64,000 nt of DNA, taken from Bacteroidales bacterium (GTDB lineage: Bacteria > Bacteroidota > Bacteroidia > Bacteroidales > UBA4417). Position numbers and translations under genes: made by a program. Every line of letters begins with the position of its first letter. Within the stretch, counting starts at the first letter, position 1. The notes under the pieces are model-generated. The model had not been told where the DNA came from, searched no databases, and worked only from the letters and a program-made list of their open reading frames with translations. Below are positions 21,644-39,023 of this stretch, one piece after another. The stretch is from positions 13,499-77,498 of the forward strand of contig DAONEP010000005.1 in NCBI GenBank assembly GCA_035403165.1. Direction: 5' to 3'.

Positions 21644-22456
21644 TCAATAATAATCCGGGTAAGTCACCTTTACATAGTTGTGATAAGCTTTGCCGACATT
21701 ACCGGATGATGTGAAGCCCAGGACAAGGTGCTTGCCCTGAAGCTGTTGGCTGCTGATCTTATCTCCGGGAGACCAGATCAGGACGTCGTCGATGTAAAAA
21801 CGAACGAAGTGATCCTGGGTGATCATGATTTTGATCTTATGCCAGGAATTGGTATAGCTGTCGGCAACCATAGCATATTCACCGGTTGTGGTAGCTTTTC
21901 CGGAACTGTTGTTATAGCCGGCCTGTATCCAGGCGTGGCCCCTGCATCTCTCGGGTACCCAGGTGGCCTGAGTCCCGGCATACATAATGCGGAAATACGT
22001 TCCGAGGGGGATATCCTACCAAAGTACCAACGGCTGATAATCTTTGAGGGTGATTCCCAGGCCCGGGCAAACGCAGTATCCGTTAGCATCGGTAATTTTA
22101 AGGTAAACTTCAGCTTCGATGACGACCGGGCCTCCGTTGCCGATGGGGACTTTTGAGATCCCATATCCTGCCGTTGGCGAAGTGGCATTGTTGTCGAACA
22201 ATCCCTGACGGCCGCATGCCTCGTCAACCCAAACGGGCGCCGGGCTGCCGACAAGATAAAAGGATTGAAGCAGACTTGCTTCCGTATTGAAATTGTTGCT
22301 CCAACTTATGCCTGGTAAAGGCTGTGAAGATTCGTTGAATGCTGATTCAGCCTTGTTTTGATTCACAGGAATCAGGTCATCCGTCTCTTTCTGACAACCG
22401 GAAAAAGCAATTATCCCTGTTGCCAGCATTAATAAAATTCTAATTGGCTTTTTCAT
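21644..22456 (-). pseudogene. Lipoprotein with a concanavalin/LamG-like jelly-roll, interrupted by a single in-frame TAG at 22016..22018
   Basis: Track ORFs 22016..22801 and 21644..21985 are in the same frame (offset 33 nt) and the 10 codons between them contain no other stop. The lipoprotein start MKKPIRILLMLATGIIAFSGC is at 22456. The predicted beta-sandwich spans the stop. Confidence 0.65.
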
Positions 22457-22954
22457 GGTCCTGAATTTAAATGGTTGTCTGTCTGTATTAACTAAGGCAC
22501 TTCTGCCGCTGCCTGTACCGGGGAATGAGCAATAGAGAATACCGGGAATGTTAGTTGATTTTCTGGAAAATTTGTATGAATTTACAACCTGTATAACGCA
22601 AAGCAAAAAAGATAAATAAAAGGATATATGGCGGCTGTAATAATATCTGCAAAAATCAGGGGATAGCCTGCATCCTGTTGCTAAAATCATTTCATGGCTG
22701 AACAAACCGGTCAGTGTTCCGAAGATATTACTGCCGGGCGTAAAAACTATCCTGATAAATGGCGAAAATTGCCGGTTATTCAGGGCTGCAGCGGCTATCA
22801 CCCTTAATAAAAACTACTTTTCGAATGCCGGAATTCCGCTTTTTGCATCCGGGGCAAAATTGTAGTAATTTTATTGTATGCTGGTATTATGATTACTTCC
22901 CCCGCTCCCCCTCAGGCTCTGATTTGCATCATCACAATTCAAGGAAAGGCAGAG

Positions 22955-23962
22955 ATGAACCAGGTGATTTCGACCCAGTTAATGTTTTTCGATGTATTGA
23001 AGAAGCGGCTTCCCGCAAATCTGTCGCTGGTCCATGAATTGTCTGAATTGTTGGGGATCAGCTACGACAGCGCATATCGTCGTCTGAGGGGTGAAAAGGA
23101 CTTATCTATCGAAGAATTGCGAAGACTATGCATCCACTACGACATTTCATTCGATTCCCTTATCAACATTGATCACCGGCATAAGGTATTTAACTCTATT
23201 GATTTACAGGGCGACAGTTTTAATTATTATACCAAGTTGTCTGCCATAGTTAAAGACGTTTCTAAAAAGGTACTTGACTGCCAGTATAAGGATGTGATTT
23301 TTTGTACCAAGGAAATATCACTGTTCCATTTTATTCCGTTCCCGGAATTGCTGGCATTCAAGCTGTTCTTCTGGAGCCGCATTCAATACCGTTTATCGGA
23401 GCGCCAGGACAGGCGTTTCTCAACAGCCGATGATTATAGCGGTCTGCTCGGTTTAAATCAGGAAATATACGCTTATTACCTCCATATTCCGAAATATGAA
23501 ATCTGGTGCAACGAAACGCTTCAGTGCACCCTGAGGCAAATTTCCTATTGCTGGGAATCGGGCTTTTTTGCCGATGTGAGGGATGCTATATATCTCTGCG
23601 AACTGCTGGAGCAGCTCTATAGCCATCTCAAAATCCAGGCAGAGGCCGGGTATAATTTCCCTTATGGAAGCGAGCACTCCGGAATTGATAATTCCTTCAG
23701 CGTTTACTACAACGATGTTTTCCTGGTCGACAGTACCATCCTCATCAATACCGATCACAGGATGACGGCCTATCTTACTTACAACGGGCTTAATTTACTG
23801 GCAACACAGGATGCGGAAATCTGCCTGCAGATAGAGCAATCGTTGCGGAACACCATGCAATCCGGCGTGCTCATCAGCGGTACTTCGGCAAAGGAACGTA
23901 ACCATCTGTTTAAGGGCCTCATTGATGACATCAGGGCTTTAAAAGAATCCCTCCGGGGCTGA
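22955..23962 (+). CDS. Helix-turn-helix transcriptional regulator-like protein
   Basis: The N-terminal HTH reads LVHELSELLGISYDSAYRRLRGEKDLSIEEL. The C-terminal ~250 aa have no recognisable domain. I chose the ATG at 22955. Confidence 0.55.
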   Translation: MNQVISTQLMFFDVLKKRLPANLSLVHELSELLGISYDSAYRRLRGEKDLSIEELRRLCIHYDISFDSLINIDHRHKVFNSIDLQGDSFNYYTKLSAIVKDVSKKVLDCQYKDVIFCTKEISLFHFIPFPELLAFKLFFWSRIQYRLSERQDRRFSTADDYSGLLGLNQEIYAYYLHIPKYEIWCNETLQCTLRQISYCWESGFFADVRDAIYLCELLEQLYSHLKIQAEAGYNFPYGSEHSGIDNSFSVYYNDVFLVDSTILINTDHRMTAYLTYNGLNLLATQDAEICLQIEQSLRNTMQSGVLISGTSAKERNHLFKGLIDDIRALKESLRG

Positions 23963-24278
23963 TGGGAATGAACCCGTAAACCTGACAAATGCAGGAACGA
24001 ACTTTTCCTCCCAACTTACAAATGCTATAAAAATGCGGGAGAGGCCCTGTGGGGCAGGAGTAATTTATGCTACAATTCATAAACCTGTTCCGCCGGTCGC
24101 TAATGATTCATTATCTTTGTTATGGGTAATGCCGGTTGAAACGCCATAACCTGCGGTCTTAAACCTGGCAGGCCGGTAGTCGCGCGGCGCCGGCTCCGGC
24201 GGTTTTTGCACCGGAGTATTTTCCGGTATTTATAACTTGTTTTATAGACCCAGGTTGGTATTTATAAATCATCCCGAA

Positions 24279-24794
24279 ATGAAAAAACTTGTCATCTGCT
24301 TTTCGTTAGCCCTGGTTTTCATCGGATTGCCATCTTCAGCCCAGATAACCCTGCTTCTCGAAAAGCCGGGCACGGTTACCTATTACATGTATCAGAAGCA
24401 CGATTTCATTTCCATCCGGTATAAGACAAAACCCGAGGGCTTTTTTGATGCGGGTGTGATTACGGAAATTACGGATTCCACAGTACAGATCAACGGGAAT
24501 AACCGTTACAGGTTTAGTGATATTACGGCGGTTTTTCGCGGACGGCCCCTTGTGCGGATTTTCTCCAATGTGGCCATAATTTGCGGCGCCGGTTTCCTGG
24601 GACTTACACTGGTTAACGGGGTAATCGGTTCGGGAGGGCCGGCCCTGGGGCCGGACGTCGTTTCTGCCGCCGGGTCTGTGATTTTTGCCGGCTTGGTGGC
24701 GTCAGCATTTAAAAACCGGAGGTTCATCCTGGGCGAAAACTGGCGGCTGCGGACCGTTGACCTGAGCATCCTGAAACCTGACGGGCAACAATAA
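24279..24794 (+). CDS. Membrane protein of unknown function
   Basis: It has a signal peptide (MKKLVICFSLALVFIGLPSSAQ) and two Gly-rich C-terminal TM helices. Confidence 0.45.
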   Translation: MKKLVICFSLALVFIGLPSSAQITLLLEKPGTVTYYMYQKHDFISIRYKTKPEGFFDAGVITEITDSTVQINGNNRYRFSDITAVFRGRPLVRIFSNVAIICGAGFLGLTLVNGVIGSGGPALGPDVVSAAGSVIFAGLVASAFKNRRFILGENWRLRTVDLSILKPDGQQ

Positions 24795-24952
24795 CCGCCC
24801 AGGCATGCGACATTGCATAAAGTTACTGCCGGAAAGGGATCCTCATTGCATCCTTTCTCCCATTAATAATGGGTATTGCTTCAATTGCAGGGGACAGCCT
24901 GCCCGCCTCCGGATGCCGGCCTTTCAGCGGATGGCGGAAATAGCCGGTTACA

Positions 24953-25552
24953 TCAGGGTTCCGTATAGCGGATGGTATAAGCATAATCCCGGATCACCAG
25001 GGCATGCGGAGGCTCCTTGGAATGAAACAGGCTGATCCAGCAATAGGAAGTATCGGTTCCCGTGATCAGTTTTACGCCGGCAAAAGCGTGCCGGATAGTA
25101 TCCCACTGGCCTGTAGACCAATGATGCCCGGGATCCCAGCCTTCATAGAACATGAACGCACTACCCTCATGCCAGTAACTGTTCCTGCCGATGGTATCAC
25201 CGGCATTCAGGGGCCGCAGGTAGTAGTCGAGCTGGGGGGTGCGTACAATCTGATTAGGGTAAACCGGCCGCAGGCTGGCGGAATAGTAGCCGGATACGGA
25301 ATCGGGATAATCGGTCATGCTGAAAACAAGGTCATCGTTGCCGTCACGGTTCAGGTCATAGAATACCTCTTGCGATGCCAGCCCGGCAAAGTAAAAGGAA
25401 TCGTCGGGCTGAGGGTTTGTATAAACGATTCCGTTGCCGCTCGTCTGACCGGCAACGATACTTTCAGGAATCCGGACTTTTTCTTCGGGTTCTTCGGTGC
25501 AGGATGCCCAGAAGAGCAGTATAACCGGCAGCATAACAAGACGGAAATGCAT
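24953..25552 (-). CDS. Lipoprotein of unknown function
   Basis: 199 aa with a signal/lipobox LLFWASC. No domain recognised. Confidence 0.45.
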   Translation of the reverse strand: MHFRLVMLPVILLFWASCTEEPEEKVRIPESIVAGQTSGNGIVYTNPQPDDSFYFAGLASQEVFYDLNRDGNDDLVFSMTDYPDSVSGYYSASLRPVYPNQIVRTPQLDYYLRPLNAGDTIGRNSYWHEGSAFMFYEGWDPGHHWSTGQWDTIRHAFAGVKLITGTDTSYCWISLFHSKEPPHALVIRDYAYTIRYTEP

Positions 25553-25673
25553 AGGCGGCAGGATTTGAGGGTAAGAACAAAGTTAACCAAAGCATAAAAT
25601 TATACCAGCCTGACTTAAAAAACAACCGGTATAGCTGATAAAATGCGCCCCGCCTGGAGAAATGCAACCTGCC

Positions 25674-25746
25674 CGCCGGAGGCAGGCCCAGCCGGGAGTG
25701 ATCGACGGGATCCCTTTCCGGGACAGAATTTGATAATGGTTCAAAA
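25674..25746. repeat. Junction repeat, copy 1
   Basis: It shares GGCAGGC(C/T)CAGCCGGGAGTGATCG...GATCCCT...TGAT(A)ATGGTTCAAAA with copy 3, and the core CAGCCGGGAGTGATCGAC with copy 2. Confidence 0.8.
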
Positions 25747-25748
25747 TT

Positions 25749-26084
25749 CTATTTATCTGGGAATGAATATCTGCTGTAAATCACAACACCGACCCTGTCA
25801 ATATGCTCAACAAGCGCTTTTTCTTTAATATCATTGTAAATCAGAATATCAAACTTGTAGGGAAAATCAAATTCGTCCAGTTTTATTGATAAATCCAGAA
25901 CGTCGTTCAGCAATAAATCTCTTCCGCTTATTGAAATGTCAATATCAGAGCCGGTAGAGTAATTTCCTATTGCTCTCGACCCAAATAAAACTACTTTATC
26001 AATTTTAGCATTTTCTTTAAAGACGGATATTATATTTTCTAATTCAATCTCATTTAGACCGTATTTATCTGTGACCGTCATCAT
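25749..26084 (-). CDS. Minimal nucleotidyltransferase (MNT), antitoxin-type partner of the HEPN protein
   Basis: 111 aa with the GS...DxD signature LFGSRAIGNYSTGSDIDISI. Its ATG overlaps the HEPN stop (ATGA at 26081..26084). Confidence 0.85.
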   Translation of the reverse strand: MMTVTDKYGLNEIELENIISVFKENAKIDKVVLFGSRAIGNYSTGSDIDISISGRDLLLNDVLDLSIKLDEFDFPYKFDILIYNDIKEKALVEHIDRVGVVIYSRYSFPDK

Positions 26085-26395
26085 TGTATTTTTTTTAATT
26101 CGTCTTCAAGCGCTCCTTTCAGATCCTTTAATAAAAGAAAATACTCATATCTGATATTCCTGATTATTTCTTCAGCGGTTTCTTCATCATAAGTGTGGCT
26201 TGTCAGATTACGGCTTTTGTGCATTCTCATCCAGCCATTTCCATCAGTAATATAACCGTCCTGAAAACTTTGTTCAATAACAGGTTTCGGCCCGATGATA
26301 CCATAATAACCTTTTTCTTTCAGTAAATCCTGAAGCGTTTCCCAGCCTAACTCAAATGTATACTCAAAGGCTTTAATGAGGCCCAGTTTTTCCAA
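26081..26395 (-). CDS. HEPN-domain protein, HI0074-type 'nucleotidyltransferase substrate-binding protein'; 5' end uncertain
   Basis: It has the Rx4H motif RNLTSHTY and the family block FEYTFELGWETL. The listed start is a TTG. Conserved family residues (DIRWTQRF...) are encoded in-frame upstream with no ATG, GTG or TTG. Confidence 0.8.
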   Translation of the reverse strand: MEKLGLIKAFEYTFELGWETLQDLLKEKGYYGIIGPKPVIEQSFQDGYITDGNGWMRMHKSRNLTSHTYDEETAEEIIRNIRYEYFLLLKDLKGALEDELKKIQ

Positions 26396-26530
26396 CTCGT
26401 TAAACTTATCAACATCAACAAAGCGTTCGAGTTGGCTAAAAGCTTTTATATAATTAATGAAACGCTGTGTCCATCGTATATCCGGATGCTCCTTTTTACA
26501 TCTTTTAACAAGGATAAGATTTGTTTTGTC

Positions 26531-26590
26531 GGACTGGCTCAGCCGGGAGTGATCGACGATTTTTTGATGAACGGGGAAGGGCTTGCAGAT
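26531..26590. repeat. Junction repeat, copy 2
   Basis: GGCTCAGCCGGGAGTGATCGAC followed by ..GATGAACGGGGAAGGGCTTGC, which parallels ATGAACGGGGTAGGGATTGC in copy 3. Confidence 0.75.
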
Positions 26591-26687
26591 CGGTCATGCC
26601 AACTGCCGGATGTCAAGCCGAAAAACGGCCTGAGCCGAAAGATGCCCACCGAAAACCACTGCCGCCGCCATTGACGGGTAGCTGATA

Positions 26688-28292
26688 TTACAGGGCGTTT
26701 TCAATTTCTTTGATCGCACGTTCCAGCGCTGCATCTCTATTCTTCATGTAATCGTCGATCGTTTCTTTCACTTCAATATCCGGCTTAACGCCGCTATTTA
26801 CAAATCTTTTTTCACTGATCGGGTAGCAGATGCGTCTTGTACAAATTCTGGCATATCCTCCCCCCGGTAATCCCTGTACCACCAAAGGGGAACCGGTTGA
26901 GCCGCCGGTTTCTTCACCAATCAGTATTGGCCTCTCCGGTGTTTCATATATGTTAACCAGGAAATCTTCGGCCGCAGAAAAAGTAAACCGTCCGATTAAT
27001 ATAACCGTCGGACAAGTGATCCTTTTTAGTGTATCTGATACAAATACAGAATCAGGCCTCTCGAAACGATATGCACGATTTAAAAAGTAATCTTTATATT
27101 GTTCCTGCCAGTTCCCGTTTGCTTTTCTTACTCCGTCATTTATTCTTGTCTCCGAGGCAAAGTTGAGAAAATAATTCCCCTTTGTCAGGTATTTTTGCAA
27201 ATGCCAGGCTACATTGGTGGTTCCGCCGCCGTTTTTACGAAGGTCAATTATTACCCCTTTTGCTTTTGATAACTTGTCAACTACATTGTCAAATTCTTTG
27301 ATCGCTTCCTCTTCCGGCCAAAATCGATTGAAACTTACCAATGCAATATCCTTATCCAGCCATTTCAGATCAACAATATCTTGCGGGTAATTTATTGCCG
27401 GCCCCCAAGATTGATCATGATCGGTGCGGGTAGCCTCGCCGTTGTGCTGAAGCTCAATATTAACAATACCGCCATCGGTTTTTCTGATTTTCCCTTTGAA
27501 CGGCTGATCTTTGAAGCCATTCGGCAGCTTAACCATTCCCTGCATCCATAAATGTTGTTCGGTAGAAGCGGATATGTATGGAAATATATTTGTTTCGAGA
27601 TACTCTAATGTAGGAATATTCTCAATTTCAATGACCTCGGCGCCAACCCAGGTTGAATCAAGTTCGGGTATTTTACGCACAGAGGTTATATAGACTTTGT
27701 TATTAAAGTTTTGCAAAGAGACCGGGATATAATCGGTATAAGGACGAAATTGTCCATTATCGGATACCTCGCTGTGACCATCGTGTAAATTTGCCATGAA
27801 CTTTTTCAATACCTGATAGTATTCATAGTCGTTTTTGGTTGCCAGCGCCAGAGGGATAAAAGTCCTGTAAAGGCTATCCGGATCAGGTTTAAGCCGGTCA
27901 ATGTTTACAAAATTGTACTTCGTTTCTGACCAGATCTGGCTCAGCCAGTACAACTTTTCATCGGCGGGAATTTTGTCCGGCAAATCCTTGATTCCGACAA
28001 TCTCAGTATGCGCAGTGTCCTGATGGTTAAGAATGATATTGAATTTTATGGTGTCGTTTTTGGAAACATAAAATAAAGCGGTGTCAATATTGGTTTGAAA
28101 TATCACCGTATTCTTCTCATGGGAACAATAAACTTTCAGCCTGTCCGGATTATCTTCCGGTGAAATACGCCACTCCTGCACGGCGCCGTTAACACTAAAT
28201 TTTATCTTTTTCTTATCCGATCGAATGTTCTTTTGTCCGTAAACAACAGAAAACGAACAAATTATAAATAAAAGTAAAAAGGTTCTTTTCAT
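26688..28292 (-). CDS. S41-family serine peptidase (tail-specific-protease-like), secreted
   Basis: Blocks VIIDLRKNGGG and GRFTFSAAEDF (Ser nucleophile region) are present, plus IGEETGGSTGSP. The signal peptide MKRTFLLLFIICSFSVVYGQ starts at 28292. The track start at 28427 reads through the junction repeat. Confidence 0.8.
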   Translation of the reverse strand: MKRTFLLLFIICSFSVVYGQKNIRSDKKKIKFSVNGAVQEWRISPEDNPDRLKVYCSHEKNTVIFQTNIDTALFYVSKNDTIKFNIILNHQDTAHTEIVGIKDLPDKIPADEKLYWLSQIWSETKYNFVNIDRLKPDPDSLYRTFIPLALATKNDYEYYQVLKKFMANLHDGHSEVSDNGQFRPYTDYIPVSLQNFNNKVYITSVRKIPELDSTWVGAEVIEIENIPTLEYLETNIFPYISASTEQHLWMQGMVKLPNGFKDQPFKGKIRKTDGGIVNIELQHNGEATRTDHDQSWGPAINYPQDIVDLKWLDKDIALVSFNRFWPEEEAIKEFDNVVDKLSKAKGVIIDLRKNGGGTTNVAWHLQKYLTKGNYFLNFASETRINDGVRKANGNWQEQYKDYFLNRAYRFERPDSVFVSDTLKRITCPTVILIGRFTFSAAEDFLVNIYETPERPILIGEETGGSTGSPLVVQGLPGGGYARICTRRICYPISEKRFVNSGVKPDIEVKETIDDYMKNRDAALERAIKEIENAL

Positions 28293-28331
28293 AAGCTGGT
28301 TATATCTCGCCGGGATGAAAGTAACCGACTG

Positions 28332-28403
28332 GCCGGCGGCAGGCTCAGCCGGGAGTGATCGGATCCCTATGAACGGGGTAGGGATTGCTGATGGTTCAAA
28401 AAA
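28332..28403. repeat. Junction repeat, copy 3
   Basis: GGCCGGCGGCAGGCTCAGCCGGGAGTGATCGGATCCCTATGAACGGGGTAGGGATTGCTGATGGTTCAAAAA. It contains an internal hairpin ATCCCTA-N9-TAGGGAT. Confidence 0.8.
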
Positions 28404-28431
28404 CTGTTTTTTATGCGATCGCCTCATTTGT

Positions 28432-29343
28432 TTATAAATTCTTTAAAAAGTCATCTTCTGATATTATTTCAAGAGTCGAACCTTTTTCAATAAGTTTAAC
28501 TGCCTTTTCCTGTTTATTACTCATACCATCTTCGCCAACGACTCTGTAATCTTGCTGCCCAACTACTAAAAAATCCGTATCTTTTGTAACACTATTTCCA
28601 TTTATGCCACCAATGTCTGCTATTATTTGCTGAGCTTCGGTTCTTATCATTGAAGATAAAGTTCCTGTAAAAACGACTGTTCTGCCATAAAAGATACTGC
28701 CTGCATTGTGTTTTGCTGGGTCGCCAACTATTTTCGATAAATCTTTTGCCTTATTTATTCTCTTTGTCTCAGATGGACTGTATCCACCGTGATAGAGCTG
28801 TCCAATTGTGGTTTTTAATTTCTCAGGGAAATCATCTAGTGAAATAACACCCGCAATTTCAAAAGCCTTTAATGCTAATTCTGCAGTTGCTCTGCTGTCA
28901 GCGCCAGCTCTGTGGTGTACCAGAGGGATGTCGTTTACTCTACATAAAGTCTTTAAGTCATATGCAGGAAGTCCTTCCCAAACTTTTTTTGAGAAAATAT
29001 AGCTACAACAATAGTGTAATGATGGGAAAGGAAGTTTGTAAAGTTCAAGAGTTCTGCGTAAAACGCTTATATCAAAACCGGCATTGTGCGCAATGAGGAA
29101 CTGATTTTCAATTAGTGGTCTTAGTTCAGTCCATATGATATTGAACTCAGGCTTGTCTGCTGTATCTTTTGGAGTAATGCCGTGAATAAAAATATTGAAT
29201 CCATCATATTCATTATTAATCGGTTTAATCAACCAAGTTTTCGTCTCAACAATCTGACTATTTTTAATGAAAGTCAATCCAATCTCACAAGGACTGTGTC
29301 TCTGCGAAGTAGCTGTTTCAAAATCTAATGTTATAAAATCCAT
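28432..29343 (-). CDS. DnaQ-like DEDDh 3'-5' exonuclease fused to a C-terminal BRCT domain
   Basis: Exo I is LDFETA, Exo II is AHNAGFD, Exo III is HHRAGADSRATAEL. The BRCT block is GRTVVFTGTLSSMIRTEAQQIIADIGGINGNSVTKDTDFLVVG. The ATG at 29343 is preferred over the TTG at 29370. Confidence 0.85.
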   Translation of the reverse strand: MDFITLDFETATSQRHSPCEIGLTFIKNSQIVETKTWLIKPINNEYDGFNIFIHGITPKDTADKPEFNIIWTELRPLIENQFLIAHNAGFDISVLRRTLELYKLPFPSLHYCCSYIFSKKVWEGLPAYDLKTLCRVNDIPLVHHRAGADSRATAELALKAFEIAGVISLDDFPEKLKTTIGQLYHGGYSPSETKRINKAKDLSKIVGDPAKHNAGSIFYGRTVVFTGTLSSMIRTEAQQIIADIGGINGNSVTKDTDFLVVGQQDYRVVGEDGMSNKQEKAVKLIEKGSTLEIISEDDFLKNL

Positions 29344-29524
29344 TTCATTTTGGTTTATTTTGGCATTCAAGCCTTTTTAAGCGGCTGCATAACGTTGGTT
29401 GTATTGAAAGTTACAATTTGCGTAGCGATTTTCTAGCAAGATAAATTGAACATAATGCGGGTTAACGCACTTGAATTACAATCTGTTACGGTAAATTTTT
29501 ATACCATATGTGAACAGAAGCTTT

Positions 29525-30151
29525 TCAAGTTAGTTCTATTAGTCTCTTTATATCTTTACTTTGTTTTACCTTTTCAACCAGTTTCCGAATCTCATTAATT
29601 CCATTACTCCAACTTTTAAAAAAGATATAATAATCAGTTTTGAGATTACTAAGTTCCTTATCGCAAGCATCTTCTAACCATTTGTCTGTCATACTATGTC
29701 CATAGTTATTACGAAGTCTATTTAAAATTTGCGCTTGCTTTAGTATTTGTGCTTTACCTTTGAATTCAATTGTATATTTAAAATATTCATTAATAGATCC
29801 GAATTGGCTCTCATTCTCGAAGTTATTAACTTGAATCACTGTTGGATATAGTGAGACTTGGATATAATAATTAATATATTTTATTAGCATCTTCATTTGT
29901 TCAATCATCAACTGATGATAGATAAAAAGAGCTGCGATTTTACCTTCTGGGAAAGTACGATCAAAGAAATCGTCGGCATTTCCATTTAATTGACTCAATT
30001 TGTTTGTATCCGGCCACCAAAGATGTCCATCAATGTTCTCAAATTTTTGCTTTATGTCGTCTTTATATGTCATTTTGCTATTGTATACAACGGCCAGAGC
30101 TATATGAAATTGACGAATGCGGGCGGTTTTTCTGTCGAGCCGCAAGGCCAT
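29525..30151 (-). CDS. Orphan alpha-helical protein with an Rx4H (HEPN-like) motif
   Basis: 208 aa, or 182 aa from the alternative ATG at 30073. The composition predicts an all-helical protein. LNRLRNNYGH lies in the C-terminal third. No family recognised by eye. The gene is AT-rich. Confidence 0.5.
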   Translation of the reverse strand: MALRLDRKTARIRQFHIALAVVYNSKMTYKDDIKQKFENIDGHLWWPDTNKLSQLNGNADDFFDRTFPEGKIAALFIYHQLMIEQMKMLIKYINYYIQVSLYPTVIQVNNFENESQFGSINEYFKYTIEFKGKAQILKQAQILNRLRNNYGHSMTDKWLEDACDKELSNLKTDYYIFFKSWSNGINEIRKLVEKVKQSKDIKRLIELT

Positions 30152-30227: not shown

Positions 30228-31076
30228 TTATAACTCTTTCAATGAATTCACAATATCGCCAATACTATGAATGGATGTGTTCAAAGCCATCTTGTCTGCT
30301 AATGTTGGACTAAACTTCAATACTTCATCTTTCGTAATTTTGTGCCAAATAGGCAATATCACTTTGTGTCCATTCATTTCTTTGGCTACCATACCATTTA
30401 ATTCATACTCTGGCCACTTCTTTTTCAAAAACGAAGGTGAGATAATTACAATTCCGTATTTGGATTTTGCCAAACCATTATCAATCTTTTTCCTTAAGCT
30501 ATCTCCTATCTTTAACTCAAATTCGTCATACCATACTTTAAAGCCATTATTCTTCAAAGCATCAACTAAATCCCTTACTATCTCATCTTTATCATCAGAA
30601 GCGTGCGATATAAAAAAATCGTACTCCTTATCGTCTAAATCATTAAAGTTCTCTGTCTTTGATGAGTAATTTTGATTTATTAGAAAATTCAATTGAGATT
30701 TCTGCTGTTCTACATCTTGCTGTAATTTACGCTGAAAGTCTAATTGATCTTTTTGCTGCTTTTTTTGTTCGGCTTCTTCGGCATTTCTTAAATCTTGCTT
30801 TTTCCTACCAATTTCAACTGATTTATTAGCTATCTGTTTCTGATATTCCGCAATTTTCTTTTTACAATTATAAATATCGTTTTGATAACCTCGAATCTGT
30901 CTTAGTTTGCTTTGCAACGAAGACTCTGACGTGTATTTATTAATTGACTTGTTTACTGAGTCAATCTGACGGTTTTTGTCATTCTCTTTTCTGCTTTCGT
31001 CTGCTATCTTCTTTTGAAAGTCTGCAACATCTTTTTCAAGTCTATTGACTTGGTCTTGATAATGGGATAAATTCAT
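30228..31076 (-). CDS. Coiled-coil plus TIR-domain protein (bacterial Tcp/AbTir-like architecture)
   Basis: 282 aa. Residues 1-150 are heptad-rich in K/Q/E. The TIR blocks are YDFFISHASDDKD, VWYDEFELKIGDSL and GIVIISPSFLKKKWPEYELNG, the last containing the conserved catalytic-type Glu. Confidence 0.9.
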   Translation of the reverse strand: MNLSHYQDQVNRLEKDVADFQKKIADESRKENDKNRQIDSVNKSINKYTSESSLQSKLRQIRGYQNDIYNCKKKIAEYQKQIANKSVEIGRKKQDLRNAEEAEQKKQQKDQLDFQRKLQQDVEQQKSQLNFLINQNYSSKTENFNDLDDKEYDFFISHASDDKDEIVRDLVDALKNNGFKVWYDEFELKIGDSLRKKIDNGLAKSKYGIVIISPSFLKKKWPEYELNGMVAKEMNGHKVILPIWHKITKDEVLKFSPTLADKMALNTSIHSIGDIVNSLKEL

Positions 31077-31432: not shown

Positions 31433-32245
31433 TTATTTCAACAGTTTACGGTTTCCGGCATCCTGCAAAACACTCATTTGCTGGATGGCGCTCCGGTTTA
31501 GTTTTATCAAGCGCTCTTTTTGCGGCATCTGCTCGTTGATAAACACCGCGTTCAGGTTCTCCATGTTGGATAAACAAATCAATTCGTTGATGGTGGCATA
31601 GTCGCGGATATTCCCCTTTAATCCGGGATTCGCATCCCGCCATTGCCTGGCTGTAATACCAAACAGGGCAACATTCAGCACATCGGCTTCATTTGCATAA
31701 ACAGTGGAAATTTGGGCCGGCGAAAGTTCCTGTGGTATCAGATTATGCCGGATGGCATCGGTGTGGATATGATAATTTAACCTGGTAAGTTCCCGTTTTG
31801 CCGACCAGCCAAACTGCTTTTGTTCTTCTTCTTTAAGCCGCTGAAATTCATTGATCAGATACAATTTAAAAGGGACACTAATGGCCGAACCAAATTCAAA
31901 TGCGATGTCTTTATGGGCAAAGGTGCCGCCATACCTGCCTTTTTTTACAATGATTCCGATAGAATTGGTTTTTTCAATCCACTCCGAAACACTTAATACA
32001 AAGTTGGGTAAACCGGCCTGTGATTTAAAGTGGTCAAATTCGACCACTTTAAAATAAGGGTTATTGATCTGTTCCCAGGTTCCCAGAAATTCAAGAGTAT
32101 AACGGCTTCTTAACCAGTTTTTAATAATATCGGCTGCACGGCTTTCGCTTTCTTTAGCATTTGCCATGTCGGTAATCGAAATGTAATCTTTTTCATCAAC
32201 GGAGATGATGGTAATTTCAGTATTTTTTACAATAATCTTTGCCAT
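31433..32245 (-). CDS. KilA-N domain-containing protein
   Basis: 270 aa. The N-terminus is IISVDEKDYISITDMANAK...IIKNWLRSRYTLEFLGTWEQINNP and the block GGTFAHKDIAFEFGSAISVPFKLYL follows. Both are typical of Bacteroidota KilA-N proteins. Confidence 0.75.
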   Translation of the reverse strand: MAKIIVKNTEITIISVDEKDYISITDMANAKESESRAADIIKNWLRSRYTLEFLGTWEQINNPYFKVVEFDHFKSQAGLPNFVLSVSEWIEKTNSIGIIVKKGRYGGTFAHKDIAFEFGSAISVPFKLYLINEFQRLKEEEQKQFGWSAKRELTRLNYHIHTDAIRHNLIPQELSPAQISTVYANEADVLNVALFGITARQWRDANPGLKGNIRDYATINELICLSNMENLNAVFINEQMPQKERLIKLNRSAIQQMSVLQDAGNRKLLK

Positions 32246-37370: not shown

Positions 37371-39023
37371 ATGCGTATAGCCCTGGCTCAACTCAATTAT
37401 GTAATCGGCGATTTTGAAGGTAACCTGGCAAAAATCACAAATGCCATCCGGGAAAGCCGCAGACAAAAGGCCGACCTTGTAGTTTTCGCCGAATTGTCAC
37501 TTTGCGGGTACCCGCCGCGTGATTTTCTCGAATTTGATGATTTTATAAACCGGTGCGGACTGGCCATCGAAAAAATTGCCGCTGAATGCATCGGGATTGC
37601 TGCCATCATCGGGGCGCCCGCCCGAAATCCTGATTTAAAAGGTAAGGACCTCTTTAATGCCGCCTGGCTGCTCGCCGACGGGGAAGTGAAAGGAACGGCT
37701 TTTAAAACGTTGCTTCCCAATTACGATATCTTTGATGAGTACCGTTATTTTGAACCCAACAGGCAATTTAATGTGCTGGAATATAACGGGATAAAGATCG
37801 CCCTGACCATTTGTGAAGATATCTGGAACATCGGCCCCGACCCGTTATATGTGGCTACCCCGATGGATGAGATGATCGGATTAAAACCGGATCTGATCAT
37901 TAATATTGCCGCTTCTCCCTTCAACTACGACCAGGAAAACGAAAGGGGGGAGGTGCTGGCCAAAAATGCCGGTCGTTACGGGCTGCCGCTGGTGTATGTA
38001 AACCATGTGGGAGCGCAGACGGAGTTGCTGTTCGACGGTTTGTCCCGGGTGCTTGATGCCAGCGGGGATGTGGCGGCGATGCTTCCGGCTTTCGAAGAGG
38101 GCCTTGAATTCGTGGATTTTAAATTTGTTGAAGGTAAACTGACGCCGGAACCAGTCGTTCATCCCTCTCATCAAACTTCATCGAAAACAGGACTCATCCA
38201 CGACGCGCTGGTGATGGGGATCGGCGATTATTTCCGGAAGATGGGTTTCAAAAAGGCCATATTAGGGCTTTCGGGCGGTATCGATTCGGCTGTAACGCTG
38301 GCGCTTGCAGCCCGGGCGCTGGGACCTGAAAATGTCATGGCGGTATTGCTTCCTTCGGAATTCTCATCGCAGCATTCGGTTGACGATGCGCGGCAATTGG
38401 CTGAAAACCTGGGCGTCCGTTACGAACTGATCGGCATCCGCAAAGGGTATGACAGCGTGCTGGAAACCCTGCAGCCTTATTTTAAAGGGTTGCCGTTTAA
38501 TGTAACCGAAGAAAATATTCAGGCCCGCTTAAGGGCTGTCATTCTCATGGCAATGGCTAATAAATTCGGGTATATATTGCTGAATACTTCCAATAAAAGT
38601 GAAGCGGCCGTGGGATACGGAACCCTGTACGGCGATATGTGCGGAGGATTATCGGTGCTCGGCGATGTTTATAAAACCGAAGTTTATGATCTGGCAGGTT
38701 ATATCAATGCCGAAAAAGAAATCATCCCGCTGAACAGTATCACCAAGCCGCCTTCGGCCGAGCTTCGTCCCGGGCAGAAGGACAGCGACTCGCTGCCGGA
38801 TTATTCCATCCTCGATAAAATCCTTTATCAGTATATCGAAAAGCGGATCGGGCCGTTGGAGATCATCGCCATGGGATTCGATGAAGCTATAGTAAGACGG
38901 GTGCTTAAAATGGTGAACACCAATGAATGGAAAAGGTATCAAACCGCGCCTATCCTCCGTGTTTCTCCCAAAGCGTTCGGCAGCGGCAGGCGTATGCCTA
39001 TCGTGGGGAAATACCTTTCGTGA
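37371..39023 (+). CDS. nadE: Glutamine-dependent NAD+ synthetase
   Basis: 550 aa with an N-terminal nitrilase-like CN hydrolase domain (FAELSLCGY) and a C-terminal NAD synthetase PP-loop (SGGIDS). Confidence 0.93.
   Translation: MRIALAQLNYVIGDFEGNLAKITNAIRESRRQKADLVVFAELSLCGYPPRDFLEFDDFINRCGLAIEKIAAECIGIAAIIGAPARNPDLKGKDLFNAAWLLADGEVKGTAFKTLLPNYDIFDEYRYFEPNRQFNVLEYNGIKIALTICEDIWNIGPDPLYVATPMDEMIGLKPDLIINIAASPFNYDQENERGEVLAKNAGRYGLPLVYVNHVGAQTELLFDGLSRVLDASGDVAAMLPAFEEGLEFVDFKFVEGKLTPEPVVHPSHQTSSKTGLIHDALVMGIGDYFRKMGFKKAILGLSGGIDSAVTLALAARALGPENVMAVLLPSEFSSQHSVDDARQLAENLGVRYELIGIRKGYDSVLETLQPYFKGLPFNVTEENIQARLRAVILMAMANKFGYILLNTSNKSEAAVGYGTLYGDMCGGLSVLGDVYKTEVYDLAGYINAEKEIIPLNSITKPPSAELRPGQKDSDSLPDYSILDKILYQYIEKRIGPLEIIAMGFDEAIVRRVLKMVNTNEWKRYQTAPILRVSPKAFGSGRRMPIVGKYLS

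Follow-up and report, generated by a model that had tools for sequence, protein, structure and literature searches.

Relation of CC-TIR to characterized coiled-coil TIR enzymes

The closest described relatives of the protein considered here are the TIR enzymes BtTir and AbTir, which defined the structure of 2'cADPR, an isomer of cyclic ADP-ribose (cADPR), and its synthesis; the enzymology of this type of protein is therefore settled. Both enzymes produce 2'cADPR, and their activity needs self-association (bioRxiv 10.1101/2022.05.07.491051). The BtTir crystal structure 7UXR comprises the TIR domain, residues 156 to 287 of WP_048697596 from Bacteroides thetaiotaomicron, with E230 as the catalytic residue; full-length AbTir is a dimer whose activity is initially suppressed and rises disproportionately with concentration; and in AbTir the coiled coil and the TIR domain each self-associate, as does the coiled coil of TcpB (bioRxiv 10.1101/2022.05.07.491051). 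The E208A substitution inactivates AbTir, and G174A and S176A leave it with nil or very low activity (bioRxiv 10.1101/2022.05.07.491051). In vitro, Bacteroides TIRs of the BtTir type yield a variant cADPR isomer, which has also been detected in vivo, in colonized mice (PMC9092222). Here, we analyzed a 64,000-nucleotide stretch of a Bacteroidales genome (GCA_035403165.1, contig DAONEP010000005.1, positions 13,499 to 77,498), called the window below, which carries on its minus strand, at positions 30228 to 31076, a gene for a protein of this type that we call CC-TIR. An earlier note, made from the DNA sequence alone, had described it as a TIR protein with AbTir/Tcp-like coiled-coil architecture and had counted such coiled-coil-TIR proteins among NAD+ hydrolases and producers of cADPR isomers, as is indeed published for BtTir and AbTir (bioRxiv 10.1101/2022.05.07.491051). 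We find that CC-TIR is a full-length ortholog of BtTir and thus belongs to a protein type that is already known: its relative BtTir has been characterized structurally and enzymatically, and the type is catalogued in both PADLOC and PHROGs.

CC-TIR matches BtTir from end to end

The top seven PDB sequence matches to CC-TIR are BtTir, AbTir, TcpB/BtpA, and PdTIR (E = 6e-71 to 3e-42); the next-best match has an E value of 1.6e-7. Over the TIR domain, CC-TIR is 81 to 82% identical to BtTir (7UXR; E = 6e-71), 63% identical to AbTir (7UWG and 8G83), and ~52 to 57% identical to TcpB/BtpA of Brucella (4LZP, 4LQC, and 4C7M) and PdTIR of Paracoccus (3H16). Foldseek, run on a model of CC-TIR, recovers the same set with template modeling (TM) scores of 0.8 to 0.86, normalized to the target. 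These matches, together with a full-length alignment to BtTir, bear out the AbTir/Tcp-like architecture.

For the full-length comparison we used a 287-residue protein encoded on a human fecal virome contig (MT836525, our locus L116). The crystallized BtTir sequence sits exactly at its residues 156 to 287, with Glu at 230, so this protein is BtTir. In a global alignment, CC-TIR is 64% identical to it over residues 1 to 136, 29% over the linker, and 82% over the TIR domain, and the sole indel, of 5 residues, falls in the linker. CC-TIR was also aligned with a second protein, whose TIR domain is 95% identical to that of BtTir; this alignment starts at residue 64, has 68% identity, and takes in residues 64 to 149 of the N-terminal region. 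Another candidate source of the BtTir N terminus, P0275, was rejected: its N terminus is unrelated and it probably comes from a miscalled or chimeric short contig, and P0277 and L116 were used instead. CC-TIR and BtTir thus share the order coiled coil-linker-TIR at similar length (282 versus 287 residues), the catalytic Glu, the BB loop, and the Trp residues. They differ in the linker, in one residue (T in BtTir, P222 in CC-TIR), in their gene neighbors, and in their hosts. CC-TIR comes from an uncultured lineage of Bacteroidales, for which the closest ComM is only ~75% identical. The BtTir gene lies at 1589 to 2452 of its contig, an unverified entry from human feces labeled "Bacteriophage sp."

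We also mapped the AbTir residues implicated by mutagenesis or by the cryo-electron microscopy filament (S143, G174 to L177, D182, K202, W204, T205, E208, W227, A243, and K245). Twelve of these 13 are identical in CC-TIR (S160, G191 to L194, D199, K219, W221, E225, W244, A260, and K262) and are essentially invariant across 31 orthologs. The one mismatch is AbTir T205, which is P222 in CC-TIR; Pro is also found here in TcpB, an active NAD+ glycohydrolase (NADase). The BB-loop segment G191-D192-S193-L194 (30495 to 30506, minus strand), equivalent to AbTir G174 to L177, is the same in AbTir, BtTir, and TcpB and does not vary among the 31 orthologs. The predicted catalytic Glu is residue 225 (codon 30402 to 30404, minus strand), the second Glu of WPEYEL; in ungapped alignments it falls on AbTir E208 and BtTir E230, and it is invariant in the family. 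The earlier note had picked out this residue, its number, and its catalytic position, and had placed the TIR sequence blocks (residues 155 to 164, 182 to 194, and 213 to 228), all correctly. It had also named a finding that would count against its assignment, namely, no acidic residue in the catalytic pocket upon structure-based alignment; E225 does occupy the catalytic position, and 12 of 13 AbTir functional residues, the Glu included, are identical. The comparison with AbTir (7UWG, 7UXU, and 8G83) is one of TIR domains, the AbTir coiled-coil sequence lying outside it, although AbTir likewise has a self-associating N-terminal coiled coil. Judged by sequence and modeled structure, the fold, end-to-end architecture, and catalytic and assembly residues of CC-TIR match those of enzymes proven to cleave NAD+ to nicotinamide, ADP-ribose (ADPR), and 2'cADPR.

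Domain layout of CC-TIR

The CC-TIR open reading frame (ORF) begins with ATG and comprises 282 codons plus a stop; the start Met shows no variation among the 31 aligned orthologs. The TIR domain spans residues 151 to 282 (30231 to 30626, minus strand), as had been estimated by eye. It is defined by Pfam TIR_2 (PF13676; residues 154 to 248, E = 1.2e-21, 77.8 bits against a cutoff of 28) and Pfam TIR (PF01582; residues 152 to 263, E = 7e-14, 52.4 bits against a cutoff of 21.3), both far above chance, as well as by the PDB and Foldseek matches.

The first ~150 residues had been described as a K/Q/E-rich coiled coil. The coiled coil stands on composition, periodicity, and an AlphaFold2 model, whereas the composition is in fact K/Q/N/D-rich (K, 14.7%; Q, 14%; N, 10%; D, 9.3%; E, 7.3%). 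Residues 1 to 150 contain no Pro and two Gly. Residues 1 to 60 have a hydrophobic periodicity of 3.5 residues, matched by none of 2,000 shuffles, and the core hydrophobics keep a 3-4-3-4 spacing as far as approximately residue 96. AlphaFold2, run with the alignment of 31 orthologs, predicts two long helices with a predicted local distance difference test (pLDDT) score of >90: helix 1, residues 3 to 44 (30945 to 31070, minus strand), where the heptad periodicity is seen, and helix 2, residues 51 to 139 (30660 to 30926, minus strand), where hydrophobic residues occupy the a and d positions to about residue 96. Helix 1 and the first half of helix 2 probably form a hairpin, from which the remainder of helix 2 would project to the TIR domain. 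Between helix 2 and the TIR domain is a variable linker, residues 140 to 150 (30627 to 30659, minus strand), which is the least conserved region and is modeled as disordered, with pLDDT of <50 at residues 137 to 147. Neither the sequence nor the model has an N-terminal hydrophobic signal sequence; helices with polar heptads start at residue 3.

A large family with a conserved coiled coil

More than 7,900 proteins match CC-TIR at E ≤ 1e-20. The best 120 of these are all ~283 residues long, match over their full length at 70 to 89% identity, and come mostly from Flavobacterium, Pedobacter, Sphingobacterium, Chryseobacterium, and metagenomes; the family is also present in free-living Algoriphagus and Psychroflexus. 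Among the 31 Bacteroidota orthologs, mean pairwise identity is 71% in the coiled coil (73% in helix 1), 37% in the linker, and 86% in the TIR domain. Distant, proteobacterial full-length homologs are 57 to 67% identical to CC-TIR in the TIR domain and 19 to 35% in the coiled coil. Two profiles cover the whole protein: PADLOC PDC-S66 (CC-TIR residues 1 to 282 against positions 1 to 279 of 282, E = 1.6e-109) and PHROG 15646 (E = 2.6e-88), annotated as "unknown function." Beyond this full-length match, both are catalogue entries only.

A TIR domain ~49% identical to that of CC-TIR is annotated within DUF1883 proteins on many Enterobacteriaceae plasmids, mostly conjugative (our hits H11 to H26); 388 plasmid records were matched in all. 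The TIR subtype of CC-TIR is therefore also joined to a different N-terminal module.

The family is partnerless on mobile DNA

The earlier note had reported no recognizable signal receptor nearby, and our searches agree. No gene for a SIR2, SLOG, Macro, STING, SAVED, or CARF protein was found in the 64-kb window by PADLOC and Pfam scans of the neighboring genes or in precomputed Pfam calls, which were made on metagenome contigs of the same species covering essentially the whole window; these calls describe ordinary housekeeping genes. When 12 window proteins were compared by tblastn with 25 loci encoding TIR homologs, no neighbor recurred. All-versus-all clustering of 766 neighboring ORFs from these loci gave no neighbor family common to the full-length homologs; the recurrent clusters were only antisense ORFs within the TIR gene and the synteny of three related metagenome-assembled genomes of Chloroflexota. 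PADLOC found no ThsA among the window neighbors, and no SIR2, SLOG, or Macro gene lies within ~4.5 kb on either side at 17 homologous loci.

The settings of the homologs are varied and often mobile. Temperate phage phiOH2 carries a full-length homolog in its lysogeny module, where the genes run XRE repressor, ImmA-like protease, TIR, integrase; a Klebsiella phage has one inserted on the opposite strand within its tail-gene module; and further full-length homologs reside on plasmids of Bacillales. BtTir itself adjoins a resolvase-type helix-turn-helix protein and a primase-like BT4734/VirE-PriCT protein, mobile-element genes, and its contig, like the window, has no Thoeris partner. The 132 neighboring ORFs at 17 loci include type I and type III restriction-modification, SoFic, PDC-S04, PDC-S24, PDC-S71, mad5, RhuM, and Nmad2. 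Given the lack of a conserved neighbor, the prophage, plasmid, and defense-island settings, and the partnerless BtTir, an orphan gene on mobile DNA is the rule for this family.

CC-TIR follows that rule. Its placement in an accessory island, already proposed in the earlier note, is borne out by its G+C content of 0.324, compared to 0.473 for the window, where <1% of equal-sized windows are as low. The low-GC island, the patchy distribution, and carriage by prophages and plasmids fit an accessory gene rather than a housekeeping gene. These results support a more tempered view than that of the note: the orphan state is normal for the family, and the protein is an ortholog of an enzyme already characterized. 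The locus is one more case of the usual pattern, a lone gene on mobile low-GC DNA with defense-type genes around it.

Proposed mechanism and its alternatives

We give a probability of roughly 65% to the reading that CC-TIR is an NAD+ glycohydrolase/cyclase of the BtTir/AbTir type that would act as a standalone protein, be switched on by clustering, and serve most likely against phages. The N-terminal helical hairpin and stalk may keep CC-TIR as a low-activity dimer; that the coiled coil would hold an autoinhibited oligomer is suggested by the suppressed AbTir dimer, the self-associating domains, and the concentration effect. In clustered copies, TIR domains would stack head to tail via the BB loop (G191 to L194) into two-stranded assemblies resembling the AbTir filament, and stacking would create a composite active site centered on W221 and E225, where NAD+ would be consumed. 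The conserved coiled coil could then be an oligomerization or trigger-sensing module. From its context, the gene may be a self-contained, horizontally transferred cassette without a dedicated receptor that encodes a standalone NADase of the abortive-infection type. An anti-phage role, corresponding to PDC-S66, is in our analysis the most likely function; it draws on the full-length PDC-S66 match, on restriction-modification, SoFic, and PDC genes near homologs, and on the homologs carried by phages and plasmids.

Single-protein TIR defense has a precedent in SpbK, in which one protein combines a sensor domain with a TIR NADase domain and defends against phage (PMC12847820). SpbK, from ICEBs1 of Bacillus subtilis, and the type XII retron reverse transcriptase-TIR (RT-TIR) protein are the functional analogs that we propose for CC-TIR, in that one polypeptide, encoded on a mobile element, carries a noncatalytic N-terminal module and a clustering-activated TIR NADase. 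Unlike CC-TIR, SpbK has a four-helix-bundle N-terminal domain, and its products are ADPR and N1-cADPR. The NCBIfam model Retron_TIR matches CC-TIR residues 66 to 263, the stalk and TIR domain, at E = 1e-30, yet its 106.7 bits are below the 600-bit cutoff; Pfam finds no RT domain in CC-TIR, and Rfam has no match in the 24- to 35-kb region of the window. CC-TIR belongs to neither family.

Several points weigh against the proposed reading. The activity of CC-TIR and the isomer it would make are inferred from homology. The PADLOC PDCs are 145 candidate systems, so PDC-S66 has candidate status only; we found no paper that tests PDC-S66 or a protein of the BtTir/AbTir type on phage, the two that mention PDC-S66 being genome surveys, and the label is absent from the supplements of the source preprint. 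The evidence from defense neighborhoods is qualitative, and many of the 132 neighboring ORFs are housekeeping genes. Finally, AlphaFold2 models the TIR domain with only moderate confidence (pLDDT, 42 to 80). Crystallized AbTir and BtTir expose the Glu at the surface and not in a pocket, because these structures show an inactive conformation; the active pocket forms only in the assembled filament (bioRxiv 10.1101/2022.05.07.491051). The uncertainty of our model around helix alpha-C may have this same cause.

Other explanations can be weighed against this one. CC-TIR could be a Thoeris-like signal generator acting in trans, making 2'cADPR upon infection for a receptor or effector encoded outside the window. 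Thoeris ThsB is also a TIR enzyme that makes cADPR isomers, the best of the PADLOC ThsB models, PDLC00417, matches CC-TIR residues 114 to 281 (E = 1e-47), Thoeris systems are reported to signal with 2'cADPR and 3'cADPR (PMC13232231), and some ThsA proteins are activated by 2'cADPR at high concentration (bioRxiv 10.1101/2022.05.07.491051). However, ThsA binds 3'cADPR with nanomolar affinity, and its binding of 2'cADPR was undetected by isothermal titration calorimetry (bioRxiv 10.1101/2022.05.07.491051). The genes of a Thoeris system normally lie side by side, and no ThsA-type gene (SIR2-SLOG or Macro) occurs in the window or beside the 25 homologs. The ThsB model also leaves the coiled coil uncovered, and we take its match, which at the sequence level concerns only the TIR part, as TIR-domain homology and not as a whole-ThsB match. 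We consider a signaling role in trans unlikely. A role outside immunity, in removing NAD caps from RNA or in tuning the NAD+ pool, is quite improbable: bacterial TIR proteins, AbTir among them, take nicotinamide off NAD-capped RNA (PMC10937652), and Bacteroides TIR genes of the BtTir type are expressed in the gut without deliberate phage challenge (PMC9092222), but a housekeeping function sits poorly with the low-GC island, the patchy distribution, and the prophage and plasmid carriage noted above.

The gene immediately downstream, orf182 (29525 to 30073, minus strand), raises the idea that the pair is a new immune module of two genes: 2'cADPR, a TIR filament, or direct TIR contact would activate a minimal HEPN RNase. 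The two genes lie on the same strand with a gap of 76 to 154 bp and have very low G+C contents (0.32 and 0.30), the orf182 family has an invariant Rx4H motif, and some members match HEPN models weakly. If true, such a module would provide the first dedicated effector for orphan 2'cADPR-producing TIRs. Comparative support for the pairing is lacking, however, with orf182 beside none of the 25 TIR homologs and no TIR gene at the one informative orf182 locus (see below), and its product is a single helical domain with no recognizable ligand-binding domain and no significant HEPN match by fold; we regard the module as highly improbable. Least probable of all is a host-directed virulence factor of the Tcp type, aimed at animal Toll-like receptor/MyD88 signaling as first proposed for TcpB/BtpA and TcpC. 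The TIR domain is close to that of TcpB/BtpA, deposited as an "immunosuppressor." Work on TcpB, however, treats it as an effector that an intracellular pathogen directs at its host, whereas nothing in the window suggests secretion or an animal host: CC-TIR has no hydrophobic N-terminal signal sequence, the window Pfam calls include no secretion-system genes nearby, and the family is spread through free-living Flavobacterium, Pedobacter, Algoriphagus, and Psychroflexus and many metagenomes.

The purpose and the switch of widespread partnerless 2'cADPR producers are family-wide questions, no more testable here than with BtTir. The value of this locus lies in a correct annotation and in a data point for PDC-S66 behaving as a standalone defense cassette.

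orf182, a probable separate passenger of the island

The mechanical ORF of orf182 starts at 30151, but its true start is probably the Met of MTYKDD at 30073. Close homologs are few, 4 among 5.8 billion proteins, and an exhaustive profile search yielded 151 representatives. Across 60 diverse members, no column other than R121 and H126 is invariant (consensus, LNxxRNxxxHxL); this Rx4H pair fits the HEPN Rx4-6H motif in an all-helical domain. HEPN Pfam models match 3 of the 60 members, weakly (3.9e-6, 0.003, and 0.007), and the window protein itself has no match in Pfam, NCBIfam, PADLOC, or PDB sequences. Its AlphaFold2 model is one compact all-helical domain (pLDDT, 95). A Foldseek search with this model returned nothing at E < 0.1, the first HEPN-MNT chain ranking 36th (TM score, 0.47). 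The orf182 family (~180 residues) is described by no library.

Only one orf182 homolog has usable genomic context, at our locus L026, and it has no TIR gene upstream; genome and metagenome scans gave no further loci. By its motifs, the gene upstream of this homolog (positions 3 to 731) may encode a RES-domain protein, an NAD+-targeting toxin (...YGRANG...SVLYGT...ALSEM...). We read orf182 as a divergent HEPN-like protein and a separate passenger of the island, a context gene and not a partner of the family.

The low-GC island around CC-TIR

Upstream of CC-TIR is a KilA-N domain gene (31433 to 32245, minus strand; Pfam KilA-N, E = 1.8e-19) that also belongs to PHROG 2657, annotated as a transcriptional regulator. 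It matches PADLOC PDC-S22 over its full length (E = 2.6e-128), which by sequence makes it another PADLOC defense candidate at the locus; it is not found beside other TIR homologs at the 25 loci. The rest of the low-GC block (25749 to 29370, minus strand), delimited by Pfam, PADLOC, and G+C content, comprises an MNT/HEPN pair, an S41 peptidase, and a DEDDh exonuclease-BRCT protein. Its genes have G+C contents of 0.33 to 0.42, compared with 0.50 to 0.55 in the flanks (MNT, 0.33; HEPN partner of MNT, 0.365; S41 peptidase, 0.42; DEDDh exonuclease-BRCT, 0.358; ComM, 0.55; p199, 0.53); for orf182 and the KilA-N gene the values are 0.302 and 0.417. The island is small and horizontally acquired, and CC-TIR lies in it alone.

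At the edge of the block is the MNT/HEPN pair (25749 to 26395, minus strand), a nucleotidyltransferase gene and a nucleotidyltransferase-substrate-binding (HEPN-type) gene overlapping by 4 bp. Overlapping genes of these two types are the classic arrangement of MNT/HEPN toxin-antitoxin systems, and the pair resembles one. The S41 peptidase ORF (26688 to 28427, minus strand; Pfam) probably starts too early as called mechanically, a typical signal peptide, MKRTFLLLFIICSF..., beginning at residue 46 (nucleotide 28292); the stretch upstream of residue 46 overlaps one copy of a local repeat. The third gene (28432 to 29370, minus strand) fuses a DEDDh (RNase T/DnaQ-like) exonuclease to a BRCT domain (Pfam, PADLOC, and PHROG 192); its product partially matches PADLOC PDC-S48 and a CRISPR-associated DEDDh model and falls below the NCBIfam cutoff for the epsilon subunit.

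The local repeat is a GC-rich element of ~60 to 100 nucleotides present in three copies (25651 to 25754, 26536 to 26596, and 28308 to 28409), all within the low-GC block. The three share an exact core, GGCYCAGCCGGGAGTGATCG; by chance, none would be expected. All copies are intergenic and, in the manner of cassette boundaries, flank the MNT/HEPN pair and the S41 gene; a search of the genome collection with the 20-mer core gave no match.

For the borders of the island, the window contains no tRNA gene, no flanking att-like repeat, and no integrase-type Pfam family among its gene calls. Among 80 ComM-containing loci, identity reaches at most 75%, and the common gene order amounts to GldB-ComM in one case only; because the nearest ComM relatives are only 75% identical, the borders are not definable by synteny. 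Promoter and terminator scans gave no excess over shuffles, such scans being ill suited to Bacteroidota promoters. On the p199 side of the island (window positions ~22000 to 25000), two metagenome contigs, L027 and L028, differ in gene content, with an additional 501-residue gene and others in L027. These are two metagenome versions of the same species, so the region past the island is a strain-variable hotspot. Six kilobases from CC-TIR, in DNA of core G+C content, the plus strand encodes a glutamine-dependent NAD+ synthetase (CN_hydrolase plus NAD_synthase; 37371 to 39023), whose proximity to the NAD+-consuming CC-TIR is probably coincidental.

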